The notes beneath the pieces were generated by a model. It had not been told where the DNA came from and did not search any database. It was given only the letters and a program-made list of their open reading frames with translations. The position numbers were made by a program, and so were the translations under genes. 64,000 nucleotides of DNA from Myxococcota bacterium (GTDB lineage Bacteria > Myxococcota_A > SURF-8): NCBI GenBank assembly GCA_963674735.2, contig CAXXQS010000002.1, positions 1,632,001 to 1,696,000 of the forward strand, read 5' to 3'. Each line of letters begins with the position of its first letter. The first letter of the stretch is position 1. This document shows positions 9,035 through 31,302 of the stretch, piece by piece.

Positions 9035-11659
9035 ATGACAGAAGAAATGGAGAATTTGCCGGTCACGATCCCCGAATCGCTTCCGGTGCTTCCGGTCAAG
9101 GATCTGGTTATTTTTCCGTTTATGATTGTGCCGCTGTTTGTCAATCGCGAAATGACGACGGCCGCCGTCGATACTGCGTTGGCCAGCGACCGTCTGGTAT
9201 TCTTAACGGCCCAGAAGTCTGCCGAGACGGAGGAACCGACAGGCGCAGACATCTACCCCCTCGGTACCGTGGGTATGATCATGCGTATGCGCAAACTGGT
9301 CGATGGCCGTATCAAGATATTGGTGCAGGGCGTGCACCGTGCGCGCATCAAAGAGGTGCTTTCCGAAAAGCCCTATATCACCGTGTCGGTGGAAAAGCAG
9401 GACGAGCCTTACGAAGATGACGAAGAAGCCTTGCGTGCCGAGGCGATTATTCGCACCGTCAAGGAAAACATGGAGAAGGTGATCAATCTGGGTAAGTCGA
9501 TTTCCCCGGATATCCTGCTGATGATGGGGTCGATCGACGAACCGGGCCGTTTGGCCGATCTGGTGGCGACCAACATCATCAACACCGTCGAACAGGCTCA
9601 GGAAGTTCTTGAAATCCTGGATTCCATCGAGCGTTTGCATCATGTCAACGATTTGCTCGACAAGGAAATCAAGGTGCTGACGATGCAGGCCAAGATTCAG
9701 AATCAGGCCCGCGAAGAGATGTCGAAATCGCAGCGCGATTATTATTTGCGCGAACAGTTGCGCGCCATCAAGGCGGAACTGGGCGAGTCGGACAATCAGG
9801 CCAAAGAGATCGAAGAACTGCGCGAAAAGATCCATGCGGTGGGGATGTCGGCCGAGGCGTTGAAGGAAGCCGAAAAGCAGGTCGGACGCCTTGAGACGAT
9901 GAATACCGAGTCGGCCGAGGCGTCGGTGATTCGTACCTACCTCGATTGGCTGGTGGAAATTCCCTGGAGTGCCCGTACGGAAGATACCATCGAAATTCCG
10001 TTTGCGCGCAAAGTGCTCGATGAAGACCACTACGATCTCGAAAAAATCAAGGAACGCATCCTGGAATTTCTCGGGGTGCGCAAACTCAAGGGGACGCATA
10101 AAGGCCCCATCCTCTGCTTTGTCGGCCCGCCGGGAGTGGGGAAAACATCGCTGGGTAAATCCATCGGGCGCGCCATGGGACGCAAATTCGTTCGGATTTC
10201 GCTGGGCGGCGTGCGGGATGAGGCCGAGATTCGCGGACATCGACGGACGTATGTCGGAGCCATGCCCGGTAAGATCATCCAGAGTCTCAAGCAGGCCGGC
10301 AGCCGTAATCCGGTGTTCATGATGGATGAAATCGATAAACTGGGATCCGATTTTCGCGGCGATCCGTCATCGGCGCTTTTGGAAGTGCTCGATCCCGAGC
10401 AGAACCACAGCTTTGTCGATCATTACCTCAACCTGGCCTACGACCTCACGGACGTGATGTTCGTTGCGACAGCCAACGTGCTGGATACCATTCCCCCTGC
10501 TTTGCGCGATCGGATGGAAGTGATTCAACTGGCGGGTTATTCGTCGGATGAAAAACTGCGTATCGCCAAGCGCTATCTGATTCCCAAGCAAATCGAAGAT
10601 AACGGCCTGACACCCGACCAGATCACCATGACCGACGCGGCGATTTCGTTCCTCGTTCACAGTTACACCCGTGAAGCAGGCTTGCGAAACCTGGAACGTC
10701 AGATCGGCGGCGTGTGTCGCAAGTTGGCTCTAGATGTGGCCGAAGGCAAGAAAGTGGCCGGGCGCGTTACGCCCAAGCATGTTGAAAAATACCTCGGCCG
10801 ACCGCTTTACATGGAAGGCGAAGAAGAACAGGAAGATCAGGTGGGCGTGGCCCCCGGCTTGGCCTGGACGCCCGTGGGCGGCGAGGTGCTGTATGTCGAG
10901 GCGCGATTGATGCCCGGACGCGGTCAGTTCATCCTCACCGGCCATCTCGGCGATGTGATGAAAGAATCCGCGCAGGCGGCTTGGAGTTACCTGCGTTCGA
11001 AGGCGAAAGACTACCATATTGCGGATAGCAACTTCACCAATCAGCAGGTGCACGTACACGTGCCCTCGGGCGCCATCCCCAAGGACGGCCCGTCGGCGGG
11101 CGTGACCATGGCGACCGCGCTGTTTTCCGCGTTGACCGGCCGAAAAATACACCATGATGTGGCCATGACCGGTGAAATCACCTTGACCGGCAAGGTGCTG
11201 CCCATCGGCGGCATCAAGAACAAGGTGTTGGCGGCCATGCGCATGAACATCAAAAAAATCGTCATCCCCGAGAGCAACCGCAAGGAAGTGTTGGAATTGC
11301 CGCCGCACGTCCTTCGCCTATTCGAGCCCGTTTTCGTTAAAACCATCGATGATGTTCTTTCGGTAACCATCGCCGACCCGGCACCGGCCAAAAAACGAGC
11401 CTCGAAATCCGGGACGAAAGCGGCAACCCCAAAAAAAGTCGCTCGGACTTCGAAGGGCAACGGCCGCGCTGCGGTGAAAAAAGCGGCAGCGGCCAAGAAA
11501 ACCACCCCGGCCAAAAAAACGACCAAGGCTCCAGCGAGTGCCAAGGCAGTGAAAACCGGAAAAACCCAGAGCTCGGCCAAGGCCAAGAAACCGGTCTCGA
11601 AAAAAGCGGCCGGGACGAAAACAGCCCGGGTTGCGGTCCGCGCCAAACGCGGCAAATAA
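9035..11659 (+). CDS. lon: ATP-dependent Lon protease with Lys/Ala-rich C-terminal extension
   Basis: LON N-domain, Walker A GPPGVGKTS, GHRRTYVGAMPG, PKDGPSAG (catalytic Ser) and PIGGIKNK (catalytic Lys). Confidence 0.97.
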   Translation: MTEEMENLPVTIPESLPVLPVKDLVIFPFMIVPLFVNREMTTAAVDTALASDRLVFLTAQKSAETEEPTGADIYPLGTVGMIMRMRKLVDGRIKILVQGVHRARIKEVLSEKPYITVSVEKQDEPYEDDEEALRAEAIIRTVKENMEKVINLGKSISPDILLMMGSIDEPGRLADLVATNIINTVEQAQEVLEILDSIERLHHVNDLLDKEIKVLTMQAKIQNQAREEMSKSQRDYYLREQLRAIKAELGESDNQAKEIEELREKIHAVGMSAEALKEAEKQVGRLETMNTESAEASVIRTYLDWLVEIPWSARTEDTIEIPFARKVLDEDHYDLEKIKERILEFLGVRKLKGTHKGPILCFVGPPGVGKTSLGKSIGRAMGRKFVRISLGGVRDEAEIRGHRRTYVGAMPGKIIQSLKQAGSRNPVFMMDEIDKLGSDFRGDPSSALLEVLDPEQNHSFVDHYLNLAYDLTDVMFVATANVLDTIPPALRDRMEVIQLAGYSSDEKLRIAKRYLIPKQIEDNGLTPDQITMTDAAISFLVHSYTREAGLRNLERQIGGVCRKLALDVAEGKKVAGRVTPKHVEKYLGRPLYMEGEEEQEDQVGVAPGLAWTPVGGEVLYVEARLMPGRGQFILTGHLGDVMKESAQAAWSYLRSKAKDYHIADSNFTNQQVHVHVPSGAIPKDGPSAGVTMATALFSALTGRKIHHDVAMTGEITLTGKVLPIGGIKNKVLAAMRMNIKKIVIPESNRKEVLELPPHVLRLFEPVFVKTIDDVLSVTIADPAPAKKRASKSGTKAATPKKVARTSKGNGRAAVKKAAAAKKTTPAKKTTKAPASAKAVKTGKTQSSAKAKKPVSKKAAGTKTARVAVRAKRGK

Positions 11660-18427: not shown

Positions 18428-18503
18428 GGGCCGGTAGCTCAGCTGGTAGAGCAGCGGACTTTTAATCCGTCGGTCGGGCGTTCGAATCGCCCCCGGCTCA
18501 CCA
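18428..18503 (+). tRNA. tRNA-Lys(UUU)
   Basis: 76-nt cloverleaf: TAGCTCAGCTGGTAGAGC D-arm, anticodon loop CT-TTT-AA, GTTCGAATC T-loop, encoded CCA. Confidence 0.97.
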
Positions 18504-18528: not shown

Positions 18529-18603
18529 GACCCCATCGTCTAGTGGTTAGGACACCGGCCTTTCACGCCGGCGGCGCGGGTTCAAGTCCCGCTGGGGTCG
18601 CCA
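18529..18603 (+). tRNA. tRNA-Glu(UUC), integration target
   Basis: GACCCCA...TGGGGTC acceptor stem, CCGGC-CTTTCAC-GCCGG anticodon arm, GTTCAAGTC T-loop, CCA. Confidence 0.97.
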
Positions 18604-18664
18604 ACTGTTCATAGCAGGCAGCATTTTCGGTTAACATACTGAAAATGCTGTTTGTTTTTTATGG
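18596..18664 (+). repeat. attL-type 69-bp direct repeat, copy 1
   Basis: GGTCGCCAACTGTTCATAGCAGGCAGCATTTTCGGTTAACATACTGAAAATGCTGTTTGTTTTTTATGG, identical to 31234-31302. The first 8 nt are the tRNA-Glu 3' end. Confidence 0.95.
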
Positions 18665-20075
18665 TTCCAAATTTCTCGCCGTCGAAGTCGATCCCACCTG
18701 TGAATAGGAGTTCCTGAAGTTTCACCCTCTCATCAAACTCCAGTGCTTCCCACAACTTACCGGCATTCATGACGATACGCTCAGCGAAGTCCAACGCGGA
18801 GTCGATATCCATGGTTCCGGAGTTCAGGCGGCCAAGTTCCCGCTCCACCTGTTCGATCTCGGCATCCAGTTCGATCTTCTTACTCTGGTAGGAGTCGTGG
18901 TCGATCTCTTCCTCGATGCGCAGATCGACAAGGCGGCTTTTTTTCTTCTTCAACTTTCGTAGATTGGCTTGCAGCCGTTTCTTGTGCTCCGTCCCTTCCG
19001 ACATGCGCTCCCGGTAGACATCCTTTACGATCTCGCGGAAGAGCCTCATATACTCCATCCTGGGCTTGATGCGGTTGATCTGCTCCAGGAACAGTTCTTC
19101 CATATTCTCCTTGCGGATGTTGACGGCCTTGCACTTGGTGTTCCGACAACGGTAGTAGGCATACTTCTTCCCACGGCCCGTACTCCACGACCCCGTGAGC
19201 GGTGTGCCGCATTTGGCGCAGCGTGTGAAGCGCCGGAGAGGGAAATCTTTGTTGTTCCGGTGGTGGGGGACATTCTGGTACGTGCGACCGTCCAGGATGG
19301 CCTGTACTTTCCGAAACAGATCTTCGGGGACGATGGGCTTGAAGTCGCCCTCGGTATCGATCTGGAAGCTCTCCAGGATCACACGACCGGCATATAACGG
19401 ATTGCGGAGCATGCGCCCGAAGGTCTGTGGATTGAGCTTGCCGCCCTTGGGGCTTGTGAAGCCGAGGGCATTGATCTTGTCCACAACCTGCTGCTTGGAA
19501 TACATGCGTTTGGCGAACAACTCAAAGCCTTTGCGGACAAGGTCGGCACACTCTGGATCATGAATAAGGCTCGGTCCCCCCTTCTTCCCATTGATATAGC
19601 CAATGGGAGCCTGATGGACCCATCGGCCATTCATGGCGGCTTCGAGCATGCCGGTTTTGGTCCGGTCGGAACGTAGGTCGTTATCAAGCTGAGCAAAGGT
19701 GGCGGCCATGTTTTCCATAGCCTTCCCCATCGGGCTGTCGTCGATGGGTTCGGTCACGGATCGAAGGGTAATGCCGAAGCTAGCCAGCTTGGCCTTCACT
19801 GCATGATGATCTTTGGCTTGGCGTGCAAAGCGACTCAGTTGGTAGACGACCAGAACACTAATGCGGCCCTTCGCCTTGCCGCAGTAGTCCAGCATGCGAA
19901 GAAGGGAACGACGGTTGGCGGTCTTGGCCGATTCGCCCTCCTCTACGAAGACCTTGTCCACCTCGTACCCGTTGCGCTCGCAATATTCCCGGCATAGGCG
20001 TTCCTGGCTTGTTAGACTGAAGTTGTCCACCTGTTCCTTCGATGACACCCGGCAATAGATAACGGCTCGTTCCAT
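18609..20075 (-). CDS. Large serine recombinase / integrase
   Basis: AVIYCRVSS catalytic Ser, EEGESAKT, LSRFAR, recombinase domain (APIGY...LRNPLYAG), Zn ribbon CAKCG...YYRC and coiled coil. Confidence 0.95.
   Translation of the reverse strand: MERAVIYCRVSSKEQVDNFSLTSQERLCREYCERNGYEVDKVFVEEGESAKTANRRSLLRMLDYCGKAKGRISVLVVYQLSRFARQAKDHHAVKAKLASFGITLRSVTEPIDDSPMGKAMENMAATFAQLDNDLRSDRTKTGMLEAAMNGRWVHQAPIGYINGKKGGPSLIHDPECADLVRKGFELFAKRMYSKQQVVDKINALGFTSPKGGKLNPQTFGRMLRNPLYAGRVILESFQIDTEGDFKPIVPEDLFRKVQAILDGRTYQNVPHHRNNKDFPLRRFTRCAKCGTPLTGSWSTGRGKKYAYYRCRNTKCKAVNIRKENMEELFLEQINRIKPRMEYMRLFREIVKDVYRERMSEGTEHKKRLQANLRKLKKKKSRLVDLRIEEEIDHDSYQSKKIELDAEIEQVERELGRLNSGTMDIDSALDFAERIVMNAGKLWEALEFDERVKLQELLFTGGIDFDGEKFGTIKNKQHFQYVNRKCCLL
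18619..18660 (+). terminator. Rho-independent terminator-like hairpin after the tRNA operon, inside the att repeat
   Basis: CAGCATTTTC...GAAAATGCTG 10-bp stem followed by TTTGTTTTTT. Confidence 0.7.
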
Positions 20076-20078
20076 GGG

Positions 20079-20399
20079 TCAGTTCCTCTGGCTCTCAATG
20101 TACTCGGTTATGGCCACCCGCTCCGCTTTTTCACGGCACATCCCCTTATCTTGTACCAGAGCGGCGGCGCGTTTTTCCACTTCCTCTTGCTCCTCCGGCG
20201 GCAGGCGTTTAAGAAACTCCTCAAATTCCTCGGATGCAACACCGACATCTACAGCATGATGCTGTTCGGTGTAAGCCGACACCACCACATGCGCCAGTTG
20301 ATACAGCGACTCCCGGATCTCGGTTAACTCTTCGTCCGAGACCGCCGCATCCGCTCCGAGGAGCTTTCTGCAACGATCAAGGCTAATAAGCATGACCAT
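20079..20399 (-). CDS. Small hypothetical protein directly upstream of the integrase
   Basis: 106-aa helical ORF abutting both the HTH gene and the integrase gene. Confidence 0.6.
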   Translation of the reverse strand: MVMLISLDRCRKLLGADAAVSDEELTEIRESLYQLAHVVVSAYTEQHHAVDVGVASEEFEEFLKRLPPEEQEEVEKRAAALVQDKGMCREKAERVAITEYIESQRN

Positions 20400-20624
20400 T
20401 TATTCATGCGCGCCTTGACCACGTAACCATTCCACCACATTGTCTCGGTAGAAGAGTATTCGACGACCAGCCCGGAAGTGGGGGATTTTTCCAGCAACAA
20501 CCATCGAGTACAACGTACGGGCATGAATGCCGAGATAATCAGCAAGCTGCTTCACAGACGAAACCTCGGGAAGTTGAGTGCTAGACTGGTTGTTCTGTTT
20601 GCTTTGTTTGGTGCTCATTTGCAT
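20400..20624 (-). CDS. Excisionase-like helix-turn-helix DNA-binding protein (HTH_17 type)
   Basis: SVKQLADYLGIHARTLYSMVVAGKIPHFRAGRRILFYRDNVVEWL. Confidence 0.88.
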   Translation of the reverse strand: MQMSTKQSKQNNQSSTQLPEVSSVKQLADYLGIHARTLYSMVVAGKIPHFRAGRRILFYRDNVVEWLRGQGAHE

Positions 20625-20987
20625 GTCCTTCCTGGAACACCAATCCCCATCCCTTACCCCGGGTCGGGTGGCGTCCCATTCTGAACATGCTGAACATGCA
20701 GGTCATGGTCCCGAATTACATCCCCCAAGCTGAAAACAAACTACCAAGATTACACTAAATTGTCAAGCTATCGATTCTATACAATATAGTCCCCAGCGGT
20801 TCTAAGCACCTTCCTCCGATGTTTTTTTTTCGGAGCAACACGAATTTTCAGTGAAATCGGGCATAAGGTCGATAGCGAACGAGCATTTACGACCTAAAAA
20901 AGAGACTCGAAAGTCTCTTCGCCGCGATGGAGACAGGGGCGGCTGAGGAATGGAGGCAGGAACGGTGGCGGGAGATTGGTGGGGTTA

Positions 20988-21185
20988 TCACTTGAACCGT
21001 TGCAAGATCGACTTGACCAACACGCGGGCGGCGGTCGCGCAAACTTCAACCATCAGGCGCTCTAACAATTGCACATCGGGGTCCTCTCCTTGAAAATTGA
21101 GTTCCGCGTCTGGCTCATAGTAAGGGTTCGACTCGAACTCACCATCGGAAGCAGGCGCTGGAGCTTTTGCGGTCAGGCGATCCAT
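20988..21185 (-). CDS. Small hypothetical protein
   Basis: 65-aa ORF starting 2 nt after the stop of the upstream gene. Confidence 0.4.
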   Translation of the reverse strand: MDRLTAKAPAPASDGEFESNPYYEPDAELNFQGEDPDVQLLERLMVEVCATAARVLVKSILQRFK

Positions 21186-21187
21186 GC

Positions 21188-21844
21188 CTATGCCTTTACT
21201 GGGACCGGCAACTCCGCTGCTTCAGCCAGATCGAGGCCCAGATCCAGCAGACGGCGGCTGGTCTTACTGACGGAGCAACCGACCGCCCCGGCGGTTTCGG
21301 CGAGCGAATGACCGACCTGGCGCATGGCCAGCATCGTTTGATCGTTTTCGGCCTGTTCATCCATCCACCGGCCCAGGTCGAGGCCGGATACCAGGTGAGC
21401 TTCCACATTGCGCGTTGCTTCAAAACTGATCGTGTCGAGGTAGTTCTGGATGCCGTGTTCATTGCCGGTCTTATGCAGCCCCTCTTCGTCGTCACCGATG
21501 CCATCCAAACGCAGAATCTCTGTTTCGCCGAGGAAGTAACACAGCTCGTTCATAACATCTCTGCGACGACCGGTGCCACCCACCCAGCGATGCGTATAGT
21601 CGATGGCGCCCATCTTTGCCGCGTGGACCAGCAGGGCGTCGTCCACGATCTCGTCCTGTTCAGCCTTGCGGCGGTAGAAGTCCCAGGCTACGGCCACGCC
21701 TTCACCAAACCGATCGTCGGGATCGGGATGGTTCGTTACGTGGCGCTGGATGGGATGAAACATGCCCGCGTTGAATTTCGCGGTGAATGCCTCGTTTACT
21801 GCGCTTGGGGTTTGAAATGGTGAGTCCGTTCTTGCAAGTTCCAT
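21188..21844 (-). CDS. Hypothetical protein with C-terminal sigma70 region-4-like HTH
   Basis: AGGAGG RBS before MELART. C-terminal DQTMLAMRQVGHSLAETAGAVGCSVSKTSRRL resembles a sigma-r4 HTH. Confidence 0.6.
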   Translation of the reverse strand: MELARTDSPFQTPSAVNEAFTAKFNAGMFHPIQRHVTNHPDPDDRFGEGVAVAWDFYRRKAEQDEIVDDALLVHAAKMGAIDYTHRWVGGTGRRRDVMNELCYFLGETEILRLDGIGDDEEGLHKTGNEHGIQNYLDTISFEATRNVEAHLVSGLDLGRWMDEQAENDQTMLAMRQVGHSLAETAGAVGCSVSKTSRRLLDLGLDLAEAAELPVPVKA

Positions 21845-22037
21845 CGTTTGCCTCCTGCCATGTTCAACGCACACGGAGGCCTTGCCCTGGCCCACGCGCG
21901 ACGTCGCCGCCTCTCGCGTGGGCGGTGGGGATGAATTTGCCTTCACAAAAAGAAATGGACATCAACTTACATCGATGCCCACATCTTTCTTATGACCGAT
22001 AATTGCTTAAAATTACTAACAGTTGTACTTAGGGCTT

Positions 22038-25000
22038 TCACCCATCCAGCACCTTCCGTACCATCTTGGCCAGATCTTGTGGCGTATAAGGTTTGCCGAT
22101 GAAGCTTAGACCTTCGTCCAACACACCATGATGGGCGATAACGTCCTCTGTATATCCGGATGTGTAAAGAACCTTCAGGTTCGGTATGATCGACTGGAGT
22201 TCTTCGGCCAATTCACGCCCGTTCATGCCGGGCATGACGATGTCGGTTACGAGCAGGTCTATTTCCAGATTCTCCTTCTTGACCTTGCTCAAAGCCATCG
22301 GACCGGAATCCGAACTATGGACTTTATAGCCTTGCCTTACAAGAATCTTGGTGGCGATGTTGCGCACCATACGCTCGTCTTCCACCAGAAGGACAGTTTC
22401 GCTCCCACTTGGAAGATCATCCATCTTGGTTTTTCTGGTAAGTGTTTCAGCTTTTTCCATGACAGCCGGGAAGGAAATGCGAAATATTGTCCCCTGGCCC
22501 GGTTCGGAATGGACTTCGATATGACCATCATGCTGCTTGACAATCCCGTAAACCATCGCCAGTCCCAAGCCGGTACCTTCGCCTTCTTTCTTTGTCGTGA
22601 AGAATGGATCGAATACCTTCTGCCGGGTGTCCTCATCCATACCCGCTCCATTGTCGGAGACGGTTAAAACAACATACTGGCCATGGGCAATCTTGGAGCA
22701 TGTTTCGCAACGCACATCCTCGAATGAAACATTGGCTGTCTCGATGGTCAGCTTGCCACCATTCGGCATAGCATCTCGCGCATTGACGGCCAGGTTTACC
22801 AAGATCTGTTCAAGTTGACCGGGATCGGCTTTGATGCGTCCCAGATCCCTTGTCGGAATGGTCATAAGTTCCAGATCTTCACCAATCAAGCGCCTTAACA
22901 TCTTGTGCATGTTGTCGATCAACTGATTCAGGTCGAGGACCTTCGGCTTGATGATTTGCTTGCGGCTAAATGCCAGAAGCTGGCGTGTCAGGCTTGCCGC
23001 GCTGTCCGCAGCTTGACCAATTTCCCCTAGTGATTCCAGCAGTGGGTCACCTGGAGAAAGATCCATCATGGCAAGGGACACATTACCTGTAATCCCGGTG
23101 AGCAGATTATTGAAATCATGAGCGACACCTCCGGCTAGACGGCCGACAGATTCCATTTTCTGGGATTGCTGAAGTTGCTCCTGTAGCCTTGCTTTCTCTT
23201 CCTCCGCTGCTTTCCGTTCCGTTATATCATCAATAATCCAGACAGCCCCAAGACTAAGGTCCGGCGGGGCAATGGCGCGACCATTGAACTGACACCATAC
23301 GGTGTGACCGTCCTTATGACGCAATGGATACTCCAATTGAACGATGTTGGTTTCACCGAGTCGCCAATAGTACTTCTCCCCGAATTCTTCAAAGTGCTTT
23401 TTAGAAAGATGGAGTTGTTCCGGTCCTTTGCCCTCCATTTCCTCCACCGAAAATCCCAGCATCTCCGCCATACGTGAATTGACTTTCGTGATGATCCTGT
23501 TGTGCAGCACCATGATGCCCACCATGCTGCTTTCCAGGATGGCGCTTTGCTCTTCGAGGTTGGATTTGAGTGATTGCTCGGCGAGTTTCAATTCAGAGAT
23601 GTCGGTATGCGTGCCAACCATTCGAATGGGTTTATCTTCCTTATCTCGTTCGACGACTTTTCCGCGACCGAGAATCCATTTCCATTCCCCGTTCTTCGTC
23701 TTCAGGCGAAACTCAACACCAAACGACTCTCTCTGGCTCTCAATATGCTGCTGGACGACCGATTGAGCATTATCTGCATCATCCGGGTTCAACAGGCTTT
23801 GCCATGTATCGAACGTCGACGGCAATTCTCCGGGTTCGTAACCCAACATCGTGAAATAGCGCGGACTGAAGTATACTTCCCCTGTCACAATATTCCAGTC
23901 CCACAGCCCATCAGCAGTGGCTGTGAGGGCGTATGACAATCTTTCCTCGCTGGCTCTAAGCGCCTCTTCAGCCCGCCTGCTCTCGGTAATATCCCTGAAT
24001 TCGACAGTCCTGACCTGTTTTCCTTTATATGGGATATTTCTGGCTTCAAGTCTTAAAGGATACTCTTCTCCATTCTTCCGCAAGCCGATAGCCTCATAAG
24101 GTTTTTCATACCCGGTCATGATTTTTTCCATGACCAATTCCCGTTTCGATTCGGCAATAAGCAACAGGCCATCCATGCCGATCAATTCATCCAGGGAGTA
24201 TCCGGTCATCTCGGACATGCCCTGATTGCACTCAAGAATTCTTCCCTTGTCGTGAATGGCAATACCACCGAATGAAGCATTGTGGAGGGATCGAAAACGC
24301 TCTTCGCTCTCTTGTAGAGCATTTTCCGCCTCTTTACGATCCGTGATCTCGCGATTTACCCCAATGATACCGATTGCCTCCCCTTGATCATCGCGCAGGA
24401 AAGAAACCGTTGACTCTACCGGATAGGTGGTGCCATCGGAACGATACATGTCAAGTTCGATGGTTATGGCGGTTGATGGATCAAGCTCCCCCGCCCGTTC
24501 TGATTGTAAATACTGCTGAAGTCTGTCCAATGAAAGCGCGACGGATTCCGGCGTCATGCTTTCCTGCAATGGCTGGTTCAGTTTTTCTTCTACGGAAAAC
24601 CCGCTTTGCTTCTTGATGGAAGGGCTGATGTAAGTGAGATTCAGGTCCAAATCACGAATCCATATGACATCGGAGATGTTGTCGGCCAGCAAACGATATT
24701 TCTTTTCACTTTCCACTATCGCTTTTTGACTGAGTTTCTGATCCGTGATGTCGAAGTTGACACCGATCATGCGAACGGACTGACCTTTCTCCTCTTTGAC
24801 AACCGCTGCATAGGCTTTTATATATTTTACCGTCTCATCAGGCCAGACTACCCGGAATTCAGATTCGAAATTTTCACCCGTTCGAATGGAGTCTTCCACC
24901 TCTCGACTTGCCCGCTCCACATCATCAGGATGAACTCCTTGTAGCCATGTTTCGTAGGCACCGCCAAAACCACTAGGACGGAGACCGTACAACTCGAACA

Positions 25001-28000
25001 TACGCTCGTCCCATTCGAGGTGGTTTTCAATCAAATCAAGATCCCAAATACCGAGTTTTGCCGATTCTTTCGCTAATGTAATTCTTTGATACGCCACTTT
25101 CAGTTTCTGTTCGAATCGGCGACGCTCCGTCATATCTCGCGCAATGCCGATTACCCGCTCGCCTTCATGTGTGTCAAGCACGGAGATGGTGATCTCCACC
25201 GGGTATGTCGTACCATCTTTACGCTTATGATTTGAGTCGTGGCTCATTCTACGGGTTTCAAACAACTCTCGGAAGATGGCATCAAGCGCGTCTTTCGACA
25301 CCGTCTCGGCATCGATATCCGTAATGTTCATGGAGAGCAATTCATCCCGGCTGTAGCCGCTGTCTCGACTGGCTTGAGCATTGACCTGGATGATAGCTCC
25401 CGTTTTATCACTGATGTAGATGGCGTCTGCAGCATTGTCGAGAAAAGCCTGAAGGCGCTCGTTGGTCTCTTTCAGTTCAAGGTCTTTACGTTTTCTTTCG
25501 GTAATATCTCTGGCAAAAACCGTGAACTTCTGCTGGTCTGGAAGATACGTAGTGGAGATTTCAACATCAATGATTCGACCATCTTTCCGCCTGTGACGCG
25601 CTTCGAACCGGGACGACCCGGTTTTCTTGATCTCTTCGGCATGTCGCGCTGTATCTTCGGGATCTTCATCGACATCAATATCCGTGATGGTCATTTCCAA
25701 CACTTCATCTATGGAGTAGCCGAGCATATCAGCGAAGGCCTGATTGACTTCAAGGCAATGACCTTCCGCATCCATCAGCCAGAAACCGTCCATGGTCGTT
25801 TGGATTACGGATTGCGCCTGCTGATACAGCACCTCGTATTCCTCAGCAAGTTCCCGATGCCTGATATTACTTTCCTTTAGCTTTTTCTCTGCATGCTTGC
25901 GTTCTGAAATATCCCGACCGATACTGAGAAAGCAGGATTGACCATCCCACATGATTGGCTTGACTGAAGTCTCTATAGGTAAAACGGAGCCGTCTTTTCG
26001 AAAGTGTCCCACCTCAAAAGTGGATTCACCCGTTTCCATGATCTCCCGGATTCGCGCATCAATTTTTTCCTCACTCTCCGGTACATCCAACTCGTGTAAA
26101 TTGATGGAAAAGAACTCTTCTGGCGCATAGCCGTGAAGCTCGAATGTCTTCCGGTTGGCGTAAACAAAGTTCCCTTCAGAATCATGTACCGTGATGGTAT
26201 TCGGCGCTGAATCTACCATTTCCGCCAGAACCCGATTGCGTTCCTCGGCCTCTATATGCTCGGTAATGTCCTGATGGTTCCCTATCATGCGCACGGCCTC
26301 GCCTTCCGGAGTGCGTTCAACAACGCGAGCGCTGGCCCGTATCCGACGATACTCGCCGCTCTTTGTCCGCAGGCGGAATTCGTTTTCGTAGGTATCGGAT
26401 TTTGTTTCCAGGTATTCGGAAGCCGCTGAAAGGGCGCGATCCAGATCGTCTGGGTGGATCAGCGCTTTCCAGTTTTCAAAATCGGCAGGAAACTCATCCG
26501 GTTCGTAACCGAGCATCGTGTAATATTTGGGACTGAAGGAGAGTTCGTTGGTGATGAAATTCCACTTCCATATACCGTCAGTTGTCGCGTCAACGGTAAG
26601 TTCGAGTTCTCTTTGATATTCCTGAATGCGCTTTTCAGCCCCTATCCGTTCGGAAATATCTTGTACCGTTGCAAGTATCCGGGTTGGCTGACCCTCTTCT
26701 CGTGCAATCGTCCCTTCTACATGCACGTGGATAACCACACCATCTTTCCGAACAATCCGATATTCATTGGGAGTGAGCCTGTTTTTGCCGGAAGCAACAT
26801 TTTCTTCAAGCCAGACCTGAATACGCTCCAGGTCGTCAGGATGATGAACCTCGGCATTCACTTTCGCATAGTCGAGTATTTCACCTTCGCTATATCCCAT
26901 CAGAGTTTGCATTCCAGGAGACCAGGAAACCTTTCCGGTTTCCACCTCCCACATGACATCACCCATTCTGGCGATGTATTGAGAAGCTATCAGCCGTTTT
27001 TCGCTTTCTTGAAGTGCTTCCTCGGCCAGTCTCTGCTCGCTAGTGTCCTCGTACACCGCCACGATCTGTCCGTTGGGAAGTCGATATACCGTATTCTCGA
27101 CCCACTCACGGATGCGATTGTCTTTGTAAGTTCTTAGCGGCAGATGCAGGGTTTTACCGGTGCGATAAACCTCCTGGAATATCTCGAATAAGCCGATATC
27201 CTTGATTCCAGGAAAAACCTCCGTGACCCTTTTGCCGATAATCTCATCCCGGGCAACCTTGCTGTGCTTCTCTCCCGCCGGATTGATATCAACAAAGACA
27301 AAATCTTTGCCATCATCAATCGGCTGGTAAACGGCAACGCAGCTTGCAATCGTATTGAATAAGCCATGGAAGCTACTTTCTCGTTCCGCAAGATTTTGCT
27401 CTGCTTTTCTTTGGTCTGTTGTGTCTTGCCCGTTTACGTTGACATAGATAACCTTACCGTTCTCATCGAAAATCGGCTTGTAAATTCGTGGTCCAAATTT
27501 TCGATTTCCATTGAAATCGAAAAAATAAACCTCATCGGTTACGATTTCTCCCTTTAAGGCACGCTCAAGTGATTTTCTGGAAGTCTCCTCTGCCCCTGAA
27601 TCGAAATCCCACCAGGGAGCCAGAGCAAATTCTTTGCCGATTACCTTAAATCGAGGCGTTTGTGTGACTTCAAAACACAGCTCATTGGCATCAGCGACCA
27701 TACCATTCGGGTCGATAAGCATGTTGAATTGGAAAGATTGATCGAAGGCCAATTTAAATCGCAGATCCTTTTCGCGTACTTTAAGCTCTGCTTCTTTGCG
27801 TTCCGTAATATCAACATTAGCGCCTAAATATCCGGTGATTTCCCCATTTTCATCAGTAAGGGCCACCGCCGATCCTAAAACCCAAGAAACTTTTCCTTCC
27901 GGGGTGCAAAAGCGATACTCCATATTCCAGGGTTTGTGCTGATTCGCGTGCTCATTCCAGAGCTTGAAGATTCTTTCCTTATCTTCAGAATATAAACCAT

Positions 28001-29474
28001 CCTGCCATCCGTCTCCCAAGGATTCTTCTAACGACAGACCGGCCAAGTCCCTCCATTTCTTGTTGACATAGAGACAGCGACCAGTCCGGTCTGTTTCGTA
28101 AATGGCAATGGGCGAGGATTCGGCCAGCGTCGAAAAACGCTTCTCACTTTTTCTTATAGCTTCTTCAGCGTGCTTTTTCTCGGTGATATCGTGAAGCGTT
28201 ACAAACACTTGGTAAGGCGAGTCCTCCCCTTGCCTGAACATCGGTATGGCGTTGATGATCGTCCAAACGAAATCCTGTTTTAACGGGTTGAATACAGCCA
28301 AAACCTCATTTTCTACCGATTTACCTGTCTGCAAAGCGATCACGGATGGATGTAGATCCCCAGGTACTTCGTCACCATTTTCATTCACGACTCGCCAATC
28401 TGGATGCATGGACGTGCGGCCCATAAACTGGTCGCGCGTCAGTCCCCACATGTCAAGCAAGGCCGAATTGCAGTCCGCAAGGGAGCCATCTGCAAGCTGA
28501 TAAAAAGCCCCCTGGGTCATGTTTTCAAACAACGAACGATACTTGGCTTCATTTTCCGCAAAGTCTGCTTCGGCTTTTTTTCGAGCTGAAATATCGTGTG
28601 AAATAATTTGAACGCCGGCAATTTCTGCATCAGATCGAGATATCTTCGTGTAGATGCTCAGGAACCATAGCTTCCCAATTGGTAGGTCGACGCAATCCTC
28701 ATATTCTTCCGGGCCATCAGCTTTGATTGCGGAGTTGATTCGTTTCATGTATTCAGTGCCAGCTTCTGCTGGGAAGAGATCGTTAATCGATTTGCCAATG
28801 AAATCTTGTGGCGCTCCACCCATTCGCTCTGCTGCTACTTTATTGAATGAGAGAACTGTTCCAGCAGGTGAAAAATAGCCGATGCCTATCCCCGCAGTAT
28901 CATAAAGGAGGCGAAATTTCTCTTCGCTTTCCCGTGTATTGTTTTCTGTTTGTTTTCTTTCTGTAATATCGATATGGGAGCCTCGCATGTAGCTTGGCTT
29001 TTGGTTTTTGTCGGCAAAAACGGATGCTTGAGCCAGAATCCAGCGGTAGGAACCATCCTTGTGACGGAATCTGAATTCGACCTGATAATCTTGCAGTAAC
29101 TTATCAATACAATCCTGGACTTGCTCCATGAGTAGCCCAATGTCATCCGGATGAACACGGCTCTCAAATTCTTTGAATTCATTTCCTAATTCGTCCGGCT
29201 CATAGCCAATTTGACGCTTCCATTCATCAGAGAAATCGACCTTGTTTGTCTTCAGGTTCCAGTCCCATAAACCGACCTTTCCTGCTTTTGCTGCCTGAGT
29301 TTCTCGCCAATGAGCTTCCCGCTCAATCTCTTCGATCCTTTGGCGAGCGGATTCAAGCTCCTCAATCAGCTGGGCTTTGGTTTTCTGTTGATCTGACACA
29401 ATGGCCCCCATTGCTTGATGCCATACTTCCCTGAAAATACAGCGAAAATACTTTTCCCTACTGCGATCAAACAT
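22038..29474 (-). CDS. Cytoplasmic hybrid sensor histidine kinase/response regulator with 16 tandem PAS domains
   Basis: 16 PAS/PAC units ending in DITERK-like motifs, then H-box [14 protein letters not shown]-box [11 protein letters not shown]-boxes (DNGAGM, FFTTK, GTGLGL) and a REC domain ([16 protein letters not shown]). The true start may be about 29411 or slightly downstream. Confidence 0.95.
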
Positions 29475-29933
29475 TTTACAACGACGTTAGATAAAAGGAC
29501 AAGTAAAAGTAGGAAAACAGGGCATTAATCGGCTGCTTGTCCGGATTCGGCGTAGCGCAAAAACCGTGCCGTTGGGTAACCTTACGGGCGCTTGGAGTTA
29601 CCCCCGAAATGGCCCAAAAATGTGCCCAGTTGAAAGCCGATATAGCTTCAAAACTGCACAAACTGGGGGGTGTTGCACAATGCTCCCGCCCGCTCGCCAT
29701 CACCTCGATCTCGCCCGCAAGCTGGCGATAATTTCCCCCAAAAAAATCCTCGCATGCTCACGAACCAGGTGGATCAATATTTTTCCGCCTCTTTGAGGGC
29801 TTACACTGAGTGTAACCACCAGGGTCCCCTTTCCAACGCCATAGCCCTTCAGGCGGGCGAGGGCTTGCACACTTCTTGGGGGTAGACCACGCTTCCCAAG
29901 CAACCACCTCGCGCCAGGCTGTATTCTTTTTCG

Positions 29934-30032
29934 AGGGGGAGGCGTCTGCCTCCCCCTACGATACCCCCTCCGATCGGGGGACACCCCCGAACCCCCGGCG
30001 CCTTCGCTTTGTCTAACGCCACGCGAAGGCGC
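29934..30032. other. Hairpin cluster, candidate rolling-circle double-strand origin
   Basis: Perfect 10-bp stems at 29934-29957 (AGGGGGAGGC/GCCTCCCCCT) and 29998-30032 (GCGCCTTCGC/GCGAAGGCGC, 15-nt loop), immediately 3' of rep. Confidence 0.45.
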
Positions 30033-30067
30033 GCAAGAATCAAGAAAAAAAACCAAGCTGCCATCTT

Positions 30068-30925
30068 TCAATCCTCCTCAACCTCCGGACTCCACGCACT
30101 GCCCCACATCAGGAGCAGATTGCGATGCTGGAGGCCTTGATGGAGCTGCAACAGGTGTTCTAATGATGCCTGAGAAGGCTCCTCAGAAGGCTGTGGGCAC
30201 CTCGTAACGGCTTTCATGGCATACTTTGCAAACCCCTCTGCATTCCAAGGCTGTAAATAGCGATCTCGATGCGGAACAAACCATGCACGCGATCCGAGAA
30301 GGCCGTGCCACTGGTCATCGACCCAGAGTGGATCAAACTCATCCGTCACATCCAGAACGACATGCGAATGAACATTCCAGGCCCGTCTATCACGAGTAAG
30401 CGGCACCTCGATTGCACTGATACCACCTTGCACCATCTCCATGAAGCGCTTACGGCGCCTGAGCGTCTTCTGGGCGGTGCGGAAATCATCAAGCGTTTCC
30501 CGCAGATCCCAACGGCATTTCGACCTGAGCTCAAAAATGAAAATCTGAGGCCGTTTCATTCGTTTCAAAGCTCGGAGCACCTTCTGCGCGTTCTCCTGCG
30601 CCACACGCTCAGCACAAATTGGACAGAGGCGGCGGTTGCATTGTGTTCGTTGCGGGATGCCATTGTAGAGCTGGATGGTCCCGCACCGGCGGACCTGTGA
30701 GGCGTATGACAGCAGACCAATTTGCTCCAATTCCTGCGCCCGAATCTCCTGAACGGCATCCACATCATCACCTACAAACTCAGTGGAATAGTCTGCTCTG
30801 TACACATCTTTATTATTCCCCGTCGATCTAAAATTCGCTCCGCACAAATTTCGAGCGGCATCCATCGCTCTGGTTGCTTTCTGGTTTTGGATATCCATCT
30901 CGCGCTCCTTTTTCGGAGCGGTCAT
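30068..30925 (-). CDS. Rolling-circle replication initiator (HUH endonuclease, Rep_1/pC194-like)
   Basis: N-terminal Cys cluster (RRCGT...CNRRLCPIC), GGISAIEV, HUH-like motif WNVHSHVVL and catalytic Tyr motif AKYAMK. Confidence 0.8.
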   Translation of the reverse strand: MTAPKKEREMDIQNQKATRAMDAARNLCGANFRSTGNNKDVYRADYSTEFVGDDVDAVQEIRAQELEQIGLLSYASQVRRCGTIQLYNGIPQRTQCNRRLCPICAERVAQENAQKVLRALKRMKRPQIFIFELRSKCRWDLRETLDDFRTAQKTLRRRKRFMEMVQGGISAIEVPLTRDRRAWNVHSHVVLDVTDEFDPLWVDDQWHGLLGSRAWFVPHRDRYLQPWNAEGFAKYAMKAVTRCPQPSEEPSQASLEHLLQLHQGLQHRNLLLMWGSAWSPEVEED

Positions 30926-31098
30926 GGCAGAAACACAGCAGGAAAAGTGCTTGAGCGAAAAGGCTCAATTCAGTATAATGATTACATTCCCGCCTTGCGC
31001 TACGTCTGCCAGGACCGCAAGGTTATCACCGCCCCTGCCAGGGCGGTTTTCTCGTTCAGGCTTCCGCTTCCGTTCTCAAGGCACACCGGTCCATCGCT

Positions 31099-31275
31099 TC
31101 ATCCCCTCGCTTCTTCTTGTTCGGTGATTAAGTGCCAGAAATCACGGCGGTTCTTGGCCTCGAAAAGAGACGCCTTAAGCATCTCCATACTGTCGAGCCA
31201 GTCGTCAATCTGTTTCCAAGTCAGCGTCTCGTCGGTCGCCAACTGTTCATAGCAGGCAGCATTTTCGGTTAACAT
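31099..31275 (-). other. Open reading stretch crossing attR, a possible alternative C-terminal tail of the integrase
   Basis: MLTENAACYEQLATDETLTWKQIDDWLDSMEMLKASLFEAKNRRDFWHLITEQEEARG* begins inside the repeat and runs into the element end. Confidence 0.5.
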
Positions 31276-31302
31276 ACTGAAAATGCTGTTTGTTTTTTAT
31301 GG
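31234..31302 (+). repeat. attR-type 69-bp direct repeat, copy 2
   Basis: Identical to 18596-18664. Confidence 0.95.

Follow-up and report, generated by a model that had tools for sequence, protein, structure and literature searches.

The account that best explains the window, the stretch of 64,000 nucleotides of Myxococcota DNA analyzed here, and that is very probably correct as a whole, is that an integrative element was inserted at a tRNA gene by its own large serine recombinase (LSR), that the attachment site of the element (attP) lies within the integrase coding sequence, that integration consequently swaps one C-terminal tail of the enzyme for another, that attP and attB are told apart by a 5-bp spacing rule known from other LSRs, and that the copy in the window departs from its relatives in two features of its own, an additional A in the integrase gene and an atypical right junction.

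Serine integrases are prized tools of genome engineering; to our knowledge, their directionality is generally ascribed to site geometry together with a separate directionality factor, and to nothing else. The clade that includes the window integrase appears to target the near-universal T-arm/CCA end of tRNA genes, to carry attP in its own coding sequence and to change its C-terminus with each integration and excision. If true, the control of these enzymes would have a further layer, a new pool of enzymes with predictable targets would become available, and many odd annotations would be explained, such as orphan mini-ORFs at the ends of islands and recombinases said to "end in a tRNA".

The Element and Its Target tRNA

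A perfect direct repeat of 69 nt (18596-18664 and 31234-31302; copies 12,638 nt apart) is made up of the final 8 nt of a tRNA-Glu(TTC) gene and the 61 nt that lie 3' of it, and a search of the whole 5.26-Mb genome found only these two occurrences. The segment from 18596 to 31302 is recognizable as a 12.6-kb integrative element at the extreme 3' end of tRNA-Glu(TTC), with the following features (identities are to counterparts in G004, a related genome described below):

18428-18503, + strand: tRNA-Lys(TTT), first of a tRNA pair (ARAGORN)
18529-18603, + strand: tRNA-Glu(TTC), the integration target (ARAGORN)
18596-18664: attL copy of the repeat, with the tRNA end, core and P' arm (repeat search)
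18609-20075, − strand: LSR open reading frame as it stands, 488 aa (ORF list; Pfam)
20079-20399, − strand: 106-aa backbone ORF, 51% identity, no family match
20400-20624, − strand: HTH_17/excisionase-like protein, 74 aa (Pfam HTH_17, 4.2e-14; phrog_66, 7.6e-11)
21188-21946, − strand: 252-aa backbone ORF, 35% identity, no family match
22038-29474, − strand: cargo gene for a 2478-aa hybrid histidine kinase (many PAS domains, HisKA, HATPase_c and a receiver domain)
30068-30925, − strand: Rep_1-like rolling-circle replication protein (Pfam Rep_1, 3e-12), 37% identity

The HTH_17/excisionase-like gene adjoins the integrase gene (int), and its 74-aa product is a likely candidate for the recombination directionality factor. 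The cargo has a GC content of 46-51%, against 55-59% in the flanks. Elsewhere in the same genome, a search for further copies or scars of the integrase family found none, which leaves one integrase and one tail in total.

An orthologous element occupies the same tRNA-Lys/tRNA-Glu site in G004, a genome of the same family and another genus. The two elements share 92% nucleotide identity over 1670 nt, and they have a common backbone in one orientation, consisting of the tail, the Rep_1-like gene (37%), the 252-aa ORF (35%), the 106-aa ORF (51%) and the integrase (93%). Their cargo differs, the 2478-aa PAS-rich hybrid histidine kinase of the window being replaced in G004 by an ORF of 1123 aa.

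The Integrase and Its Conserved Reading Frame

By its domains, the window integrase is an LSR. Pfam matches to Resolvase (1.2e-34, residues 4-152), Recombinase (8.9e-13) and Zn_ribbon_recom (4.1e-11) stand in the order typical of LSRs, with the Recombinase domain (DBD1) followed by the zinc ribbon (DBD2), and R9, S11 and other columns of the catalytic domain are invariant among 40 aligned sequences.

The integrase ORF (18609-20075, − strand) runs into the left copy of the repeat, where its C-terminus reads ...FGTIKNKQHFQYVNRKCCLL*; its 488 aa comprise 471 conserved residues and 17 residues that are out of frame. Past a run of six A's, the +1 frame reads KTNSIFSMLTENAACYEQLAT, which continues in the left copy into the antisense tRNA as PAGLEPAPPA* and in the right copy as DETLTWKQIDDWLDSMEMLKASLFEAKNRRDFWHLITEQEEARG*. 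An earlier sequence-only reading of the window had described the ORF, its stop at 18609 and both +1 tails, and all of its coordinates were confirmed.

18563-18659, − strand: integrase continuation in the conserved (+1) frame, TNSIFSMLTENAACYEQLATPAGLEPAPPA (stop at 18563-18565)

Read with one base skipped, the window gene yields a protein of 502 aa; the modal length of the listed relatives is ~505 aa, 17 more than the 488-aa ORF. Among 8000 candidates scored in a protein search, at least 2614 were relatives at E ≤ 0.001; 120 matches were listed, and 119 listed relatives were examined. An antisense-tRNA peptide occurs within the last 110 residues of 101 of these 119 relatives among the matches listed, compared with 0-2 of 119 when the same pattern was sought in other segments or in reversed tails; the peptide is of the type ...L-A-S-P-T-G-F-E-P-V-L-P-P, the translated antisense of a tRNA acceptor stem and T arm. 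The nearest relative among the matches listed (P0002, 69% identity) ends ...FGTIKTDSIFSMLTENAVRNDTLATPAGIEPALPA / ...GEKFGTIKTDSIFSMLTENAVRNDTLATPAGIEPALPA, that is, in the +1 frame of the window. The G004 integrase passes in a single frame into the antisense tRNA and ends ...FGTIKTNSIFSMLTKNAACYEQLATPAGIEPASPA / ...GTIKTNSIFSMLTKNAACYEQLATPAGIEPASPA.

The same arrangement was seen at the level of loci, in a set that took one genome per species and the best 80 of 533 confirmed relatives. At 62 of these 80 loci, the stop codon of the integrase ORF falls within a tRNA gene read antisense; its distance from the 3' end of the tRNA is most commonly 40 nt (32 loci) or 37 nt (13 loci). The targets of the 62 loci are genes for tRNA-Glu (37), tRNA-Ala (13), tRNA-Lys (7) and others (5), with Glu-TTC (20), Glu-CTC (17), Ala-GGC (12) and Lys-CTT (6) as the main anticodons and seven others besides. 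At the remaining 18 loci, the integrase runs off the contig (6), has internal stops (2), carries a fused tail (2; L084 and L094, see below), ends in a tRNA-like peptide for which ARAGORN makes no call (5), or is truncated or otherwise different (3). Judged against these relatives, the +1 frame of the window is the conserved integrase frame; for the stretch past the FGT motif, P0002 and the G004 orthologue decide in favor of the +1 frame, as the sequence-only reading implied, and against the alternative KNKQHF-type ending.

Core and Geometry of the Attachment Sites

18598-18609: attL core, TCGCCAACTGTT (comparison with G004)
31236-31247: attR core, TCGCCAACTGTT (comparison with G004)
18579-18585, − strand: B-arm box TTGAACC (tRNA T-arm, antisense), 12 nt from the core
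31212-31218, − strand: P-arm box TGGAAAC (codons W-K), 17 nt from the core

The only sequence common to attL and attR of the G004 element is the 12-bp TCGCCAACTGTT, and the crossover must therefore lie within 18598-18609 and 31236-31247. This core comprises the end of the acceptor stem with the discriminator and CCA, and the 6 nt that follow; across loci, the overlap shrinks to ~4 nt at the discriminator/CCA. The earlier proposal that the repeat is the attachment site holds insofar as the repeat bounds the element, whereas the crossover belongs to the 12-bp core and not to just any position in the 69 bp. The 69-bp repeat as a recombination site in its own right, centred on its AT hairpin, was ruled out by the same comparison of the G004 ends.

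Alignment of attL and attR for the window and 13 further loci (14 elements) revealed a common box, T[CGT]GAA[ACT]C, on either side of the exchange. The antisense of tRNA-Glu(TTC), which forms the B arm of attL and also supplies the last codons of the integrated-form integrase, contributes the T-arm box, and the P arm contributes a second box that is mostly TGGAACC (codons W-N), such that the S-W-N codons of the tail copy the T-arm box of the tRNA. Measured from the core, the P-arm box is exactly 5 bp more distant than the B-arm box in 14 of 14 elements. For serine integrases, two papers place the motif bound by DBD2 (the zinc ribbon) 5 bp nearer to the centre in attB than in attP (PMC3783163, PMC11722253). 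By position and spacing, the 5-bp shift of the T-arm box is the known rule by which LSRs distinguish attP from attB. A mirror-image box was not found in the P' arm, where the best offset of the position weight matrix, ~38 bp from the centre, falls on conserved F-x-x-L codons; the B' arms have no common motif, and no P'/B' pair was resolved.

The Stranded C-Terminal Tail

31099-31233, − strand: stranded C-terminal tail of the excised-form integrase, 44 codons and stop (G004 conservation, tail profile)

The stretch at 31099-31233 contains the P arm of attP and is, by its pattern of substitution, real coding sequence. The sequence-only reading had singled it out as a stranded alternative C-terminus that should be conserved next to attR, and it is: only 4 of 44 residues differ between the window and G004, where the tail in the frame set by the core reads QLANDKTLTWKQIDDWLDSMEMLKASLFEAKNCHDFWHLITEQQEARG*, and the frame is open through the 12-bp core. 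Between the two genomes, the tail has 8 synonymous and 5 non-synonymous differences (ratio 0.10, from 13 differences only) and the integrase body (471 codons) has 84 and 22 (ratio 0.06); the tail reading frame scores best of the six frames.

To look for related tails, 13 known ones (one from the window, 7 from loci and 5 from proteins) were combined into a profile, which was run on the six-frame translation of the 80 loci. There were 23 matches at E < 0.01 in 17 of these 80 loci, 10 of them outside the training set. All 23 matches share the strand of int and stand 2.4-9.7 kb upstream of it, and reversed sequences scored no better than E = 0.26. The motif W-x-x-x-x-x-W-L-x-x-L-x-x-L-R recurs at the distal element end of the 17 loci, the place where the sequence-only reading had proposed to look for a W..I..W tail. 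Eleven of 29 tails end in Ala-Ala. The tail of the window and G004 is longer than most and is without this usual ending. A protein search with the tail alone against longer proteins gave no match at E ≤ 10, weak evidence with so short a query, and a sequence search of the excised-form protein P0049 against solved structures matched catalytic domains only.

The tail also occurs fused to the integrase, in a few copies that are unintegrated or in tandem. Fused forms make up 5 of the 119 proteins among the matches listed, and they are found on a 15-kb contig that has no tRNA (L084), upstream of another integrase locus (L062) on one chromosome (L094) and in the middle of a 46-kb viral contig (L114); viral contigs with the integrase near the contig end have antisense-tRNA tails instead (Arg, Ala, Arg, His). 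A further fused case is L057, whose tail frame stays open over 332 codons and leads into a second integrase, and stacked tails were seen at several loci (among them L054 with four or five and L063 with two). Together with the in-frame tail of G004, the fused forms bear out the suggestion that the integrase gene spans its own attP and that the C-termini of the excised and integrated forms differ.

Two other readings of the tail were weighed. The first makes the 58-codon ORF at 31099-31275 an independent small gene, for example for a directionality factor, and is very improbable. The ORF has an ATG in the window, its tail portion is under purifying selection, and a TTG or GTG always stands 7-8 codons ahead of the tail W; however, the ATG lies within a duplicated P' segment that is absent from G004, and the tails have no conserved start codon: 8 of 15 are without an ATG between the upstream stop and the W motif, L026 lacks a start codon altogether, and the TTG or GTG that recurs is nothing but the core at the CCA end. 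The integrase also exists in full-length fused forms, and the ORF has no match in Pfam or PHROG.

The second reading holds that the tail peptide is functionless, its conservation reflecting a constraint on P-arm DNA only and the read-through being incidental. Such a constraint does exist in part: the S-W-N codons (AGT TGG AAC C), which mimic the T-arm box, are conserved even at third codon positions, and some of the tail conservation is therefore owed to the att-site DNA; the integrated-form tail, for its part, is plainly dictated by the tRNA. Conservation nevertheless extends 30-55 bp past the core, beyond the usual 25-bp half-site, where W-L-x-x-[LVM]-x-x-L-R is kept while synonymous Leu codons vary among CTG, CTC, CTT, TTG and TTA, which argues for selection on the protein. 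With a dN/dS of 0.10 over 44 codons, an Ala-Ala end in 11 of 29 tails and a frame open to the integrase in every case examined, a functionless peptide is decidedly unlikely.

Proposed Tail Swap and Its Possible Role

In the mechanism favored here, the P' arm, the 12-bp core and the P arm of attP are all codons of the integrase 3' coding region, and integration therefore cuts the gene at the core. The integrated gene then reads ~11 codons into the antisense tRNA and ends in the region of the anticodon loop, and the 44 codons cut off, which encode an amphipathic tail rich in W, remain at the opposite end of the element; excision would rejoin them. Among the contigs of runs X4-X6, neither an attP nor an attB junction was seen, nor could one have been, the 69-bp repeat exceeding the word length of the assembler. 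We infer that the enzyme with the W-rich helix is made only from the excised element or from an array junction and that the tail functions only when fused to that enzyme.

The swap may also make the excised and integrated states differ in activity or direction; by analogy, a regulatory role of this kind is plausible, although the odds are somewhat against it. A fuller version, doubtful as a whole, would combine three propositions: the excised form alone, with its W-L-x-x-L-x-x-L-R helix, would be competent for integration and perhaps short-lived; the integrated form would be unable to re-integrate or would favor excision with the excisionase-like partner; and the P arm would be at once tail and T-arm mimic. 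Under such a switch, the Ala-Ala end of the excised-form helix could be taken as ssrA-like, and a single stretch of DNA would specify both a protein tail (S-W-N) and the identity of the site, as a 5-bp-shifted mimic of the universal tRNA T-arm.

Relation to Known Systems

In Myxococcus phage Mx8, attP is said to lie inside intP (IntP/IntX), and the resulting swap was reportedly proposed to alter activity or direction. The window element is like Mx8 in having the attP core within the integrase ORF, and its host is likewise a member of Myxococcota; Mx8 IntP, to which the sequence-only reading had pointed, is the right analogue in gene layout. The likeness ends there, in that Mx8 Int is a tyrosine recombinase and the window enzyme a serine recombinase, with other chemistry and other site logic, and in that the new tail of the window element is antisense tRNA and the arrangement is common to a very large clade in many phyla. 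By domain content, the window integrase is an LSR with an Mx8-like gene layout and not a member of the Mx8 family.

The 2015 Islander paper names Mx8 and SSV integrases as extending across attP and states that no serine integrase was known to use a tRNA gene as its target (PMC4383910). SSV1-type integrases, in an accessible account, also have the recombination site inside the ORF, the gene being disrupted on integration (PMC7253208), and in this the window element resembles them. SSV-type enzymes, however, are tyrosine recombinases whose gene is cut into two large halves and inactivated, whereas the window family exchanges only the last ~45 codons and keeps all domains intact.

With the LSRs of LI/A118, Bxb1, phiC31 and SPbeta, the window integrase shares the set of domains, the short core, the 5-bp shift and a nearby excisionase-like gene; the accessible accounts of these phages describe neither tRNA targeting nor an attP within the enzyme's own ORF, and in the window element, unlike in the phage systems, the B-arm motif is the universal tRNA T-arm. 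Tycheposons, which flank tRNA genes, are also site-specific elements of which a minority have an LSR (910 of 937 have a tyrosine recombinase and the rest an LSR), and the accessible text of the preprint makes no mention of an integrase that spans attP or of a tail swap (10.1101/2020.12.28.424599). A search of the wider literature, which extended to neither supplements nor most subscription journals, yielded no account of an LSR whose gene spans attP, and none of a tail swap at a tRNA.

The Extra A in the Window Copy

18655-18660, − strand: run of six A's (T6 on the + strand), one base more than in G004, L106, G004b and G009

A second run of six (31293-31298, T6 on the + strand) is found in the right copy of the repeat. 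Five A's stand at this place in G004, in a metagenome contig (L106, in frame) and in remnants near other tRNA-Glu genes (G004b and G009), and among the sequences compared the six-base run occurs in the window alone; in the DNA-pattern scan of metagenomes, a first pattern gave 0 matches and a second 13 loci, of which L106 alone was related. The additional A puts the integrase out of frame after residue ~471-473, and both tails are therefore lost; the frameshifted gene is also without the conserved T-x-x-x-F-x-x-L segment that follows FGT.

The contigs of two sequencing runs from the same sample bear on whether the base is real. The contigs of run X4 (records 12, 15 and 16) have T6 at both copies without gaps, and a contig of run X5 (record 24) has T6 at the right copy; three X5 contigs are one T short at 18655 (depth 14.4 of 21.8), one of which is a divergent 237-nt contig with 10 other differences. 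These runs are probably the assembly's own source, and the support that they lend to T6 is thus not independent. Runs X1-X3 have small shares only, in the tRNA part. We take the extra A to be genuine in some of the population at least, and it may be a polymorphism or, in part, a platform error.

An error of assembly or sequencing throughout, with a true gene that has five A's and encodes an intact integrated form of 502 aa, is rather unlikely. It would agree with the one-base deletion in the three X5 contigs at a depth of 14.4 of 21.8, with the run of five in all relatives compared, and with the presence of six A's in both copies, which offer a systematic homopolymer error the same context; it is opposed by the ungapped T6 of the X4 contigs at both copies and of X5 record 24 at the right copy, by the divergence of one of the three deletion contigs, and by the length of the run, six bases being short for a systematic error.

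Programmed recoding at the A run, by ribosomal frameshifting or transcriptional slippage, to give a short and a long integrase is scarcely credible. The run does sit exactly where the frames part, and the frame-0 A-AAA-AAC of the window is what we take to be a classic -1 slippery heptamer; the conserved frame, however, is the +1 frame, a shift to -1 would meet a stop after 10 codons, the G004 orthologue and L106 have five A's and need no shift, 62 of 62 integrated relatives are in a single frame, and six A's are short for polymerase slippage. The run of six is, in comparison with its relatives, a departure and not a conserved slippage site; a slippage site was one of the origins that the sequence-only reading had offered for the extra base, beside a mutation and an assembly artefact.

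The Atypical Right Junction

31248-31302, − strand: extra P' arm copy (last integrase codons, including the A6 at 31293-31298), absent from G004 attR

The right junction of the window has 55 nt more of integrase 3' sequence than attR of G004. With this extra P' copy, attR of the window has the order P'-core-P and is a whole attP-like site. The extra copy may be what is left of a head-to-tail array after deletion of the outer copy, the family being known to include both arrays and fused junctions; it may have arisen by integration into a scar-type site, as suggested by the short remnants of integrase 3' sequence at other tRNA-Glu genes of relatives (G004b, G009, G003b and L005); or gene conversion may have made the two copies of the repeat identical.

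Given the frameshift in its integrase and its atypical right junction, the element in the window has probably been crippled or fixed in place. For the host genome, the element would then be a cargo-carrying island with a giant PAS sensor kinase that is probably no longer mobile.

A Terminator-Like Hairpin Beside the tRNA

18613-18656, + strand: hairpin of 19 pairs with a T run after it, resembling a terminator of the tRNA operon (pattern match, folding)

A scan for terminator patterns found 3 sites against 3.3 expected, a count that is not enriched. The hairpin at 18613-18656 has a minimum free energy of -29.8 kcal/mol (z = -6.7), and 0 of 200 shuffles folded as well. It overlaps integrase codons on the opposite strand, the A run of the integrase being the U tract of the hairpin. 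Relatives that are without the element keep the order core, hairpin, T run and ATGGT, with different stems. The element appears to bring a replacement terminator for the tRNA operon, and scars would survive for that use. Beyond the core, the right end of the G004 element runs into another hairpin, rich in GC and likewise followed by T's, that is presumably the native terminator of the tRNA.

Stacked Tails and Arrays at tRNA Sites

At tRNA-Ala and tRNA-Glu sites of related genomes, orphan tails (C-terminal integrase codons left at the distal end of an element) occur in stacks, and elements also form head-to-tail arrays in which an integrase is fused to the tail of the next element:

L054, near 288, 1145, 2059 and 2975: orphan tails
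L063, 1848 and 2671: orphan tails
L094/L062, same contig: array
L057, 794-1843: array/fused junction

Such stacks and arrays imply that tRNA-Ala and tRNA-Glu sites already occupied by an element received repeated insertions. Downstream of other tRNA-Glu genes of the relatives, short pieces of integrase 3′ sequence remain, comprising a hairpin and a T run with or without GLDFDGEKF codons:

G004b, L016, about 10001-10151: integrase 3′ remnant
G003b, L017; G009, L008/L018; also L005: integrase 3′ remnants

Neither an integrase nor a tail was found near these remnants in the stretches fetched around those tRNA-Glu genes.

The genome of the window (G000) carries three further serine recombinase genes, distant relatives at 28–35% identity, none of which (0/3) belongs to the window integrase's family:

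C1 559886-561108
C1 895812-896807
C2 138988-139425

C-Terminal Ends of the Tails

Ala-Ala forms the C-terminal end of 11 of the 29 excised-form tails (L023, L026, L040, L054, L057, L084, L088, L094 and L114; proteins P0049 and P0120) and Ala that of 17, typically 18 residues past W. This pattern is reminiscent of the ssrA-type C-terminal degron. Six of the 119 homologues listed have Ala-Ala at the C-terminus; a plain tRNA-type tail accounts for just one of these. The C-terminal residues of the window tail are ARG.

Cargo and Right-Hand Surroundings of the Element

The cargo encodes a large kinase, recognized by domain matches, with at least 13 PAS-type stretches and with HisKA, HATPase_c and receiver domains:

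22038-29474, − strand: hybrid histidine kinase, 2478 aa

GC content is 46–51% in this cargo, whereas the flanks have 55–59%. One contig of sequencing run X6, from a different sample of the same organism, fuses 20907 to 26210 and leaves out 5302 nt (depth 17.8; shorter side 255 nt); this joint would be an element variant with shorter or different cargo.

Two features lie at the right-hand side:

about 31028-31060, + strand: GC-rich hairpin CCGCCCCTGCCAGGGCGG, then TTTT, just past the tail's stop codon
31365-33056, − strand: GH5 cellulase-family gene (Pfam Cellulase, 1.4e-24)

The hairpin and TTTT are kept in the orthologous element of G004, and their orientation makes them a candidate terminator for + strand transcripts. 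The GH5 cellulase-family gene directly adjoins the element's right side.
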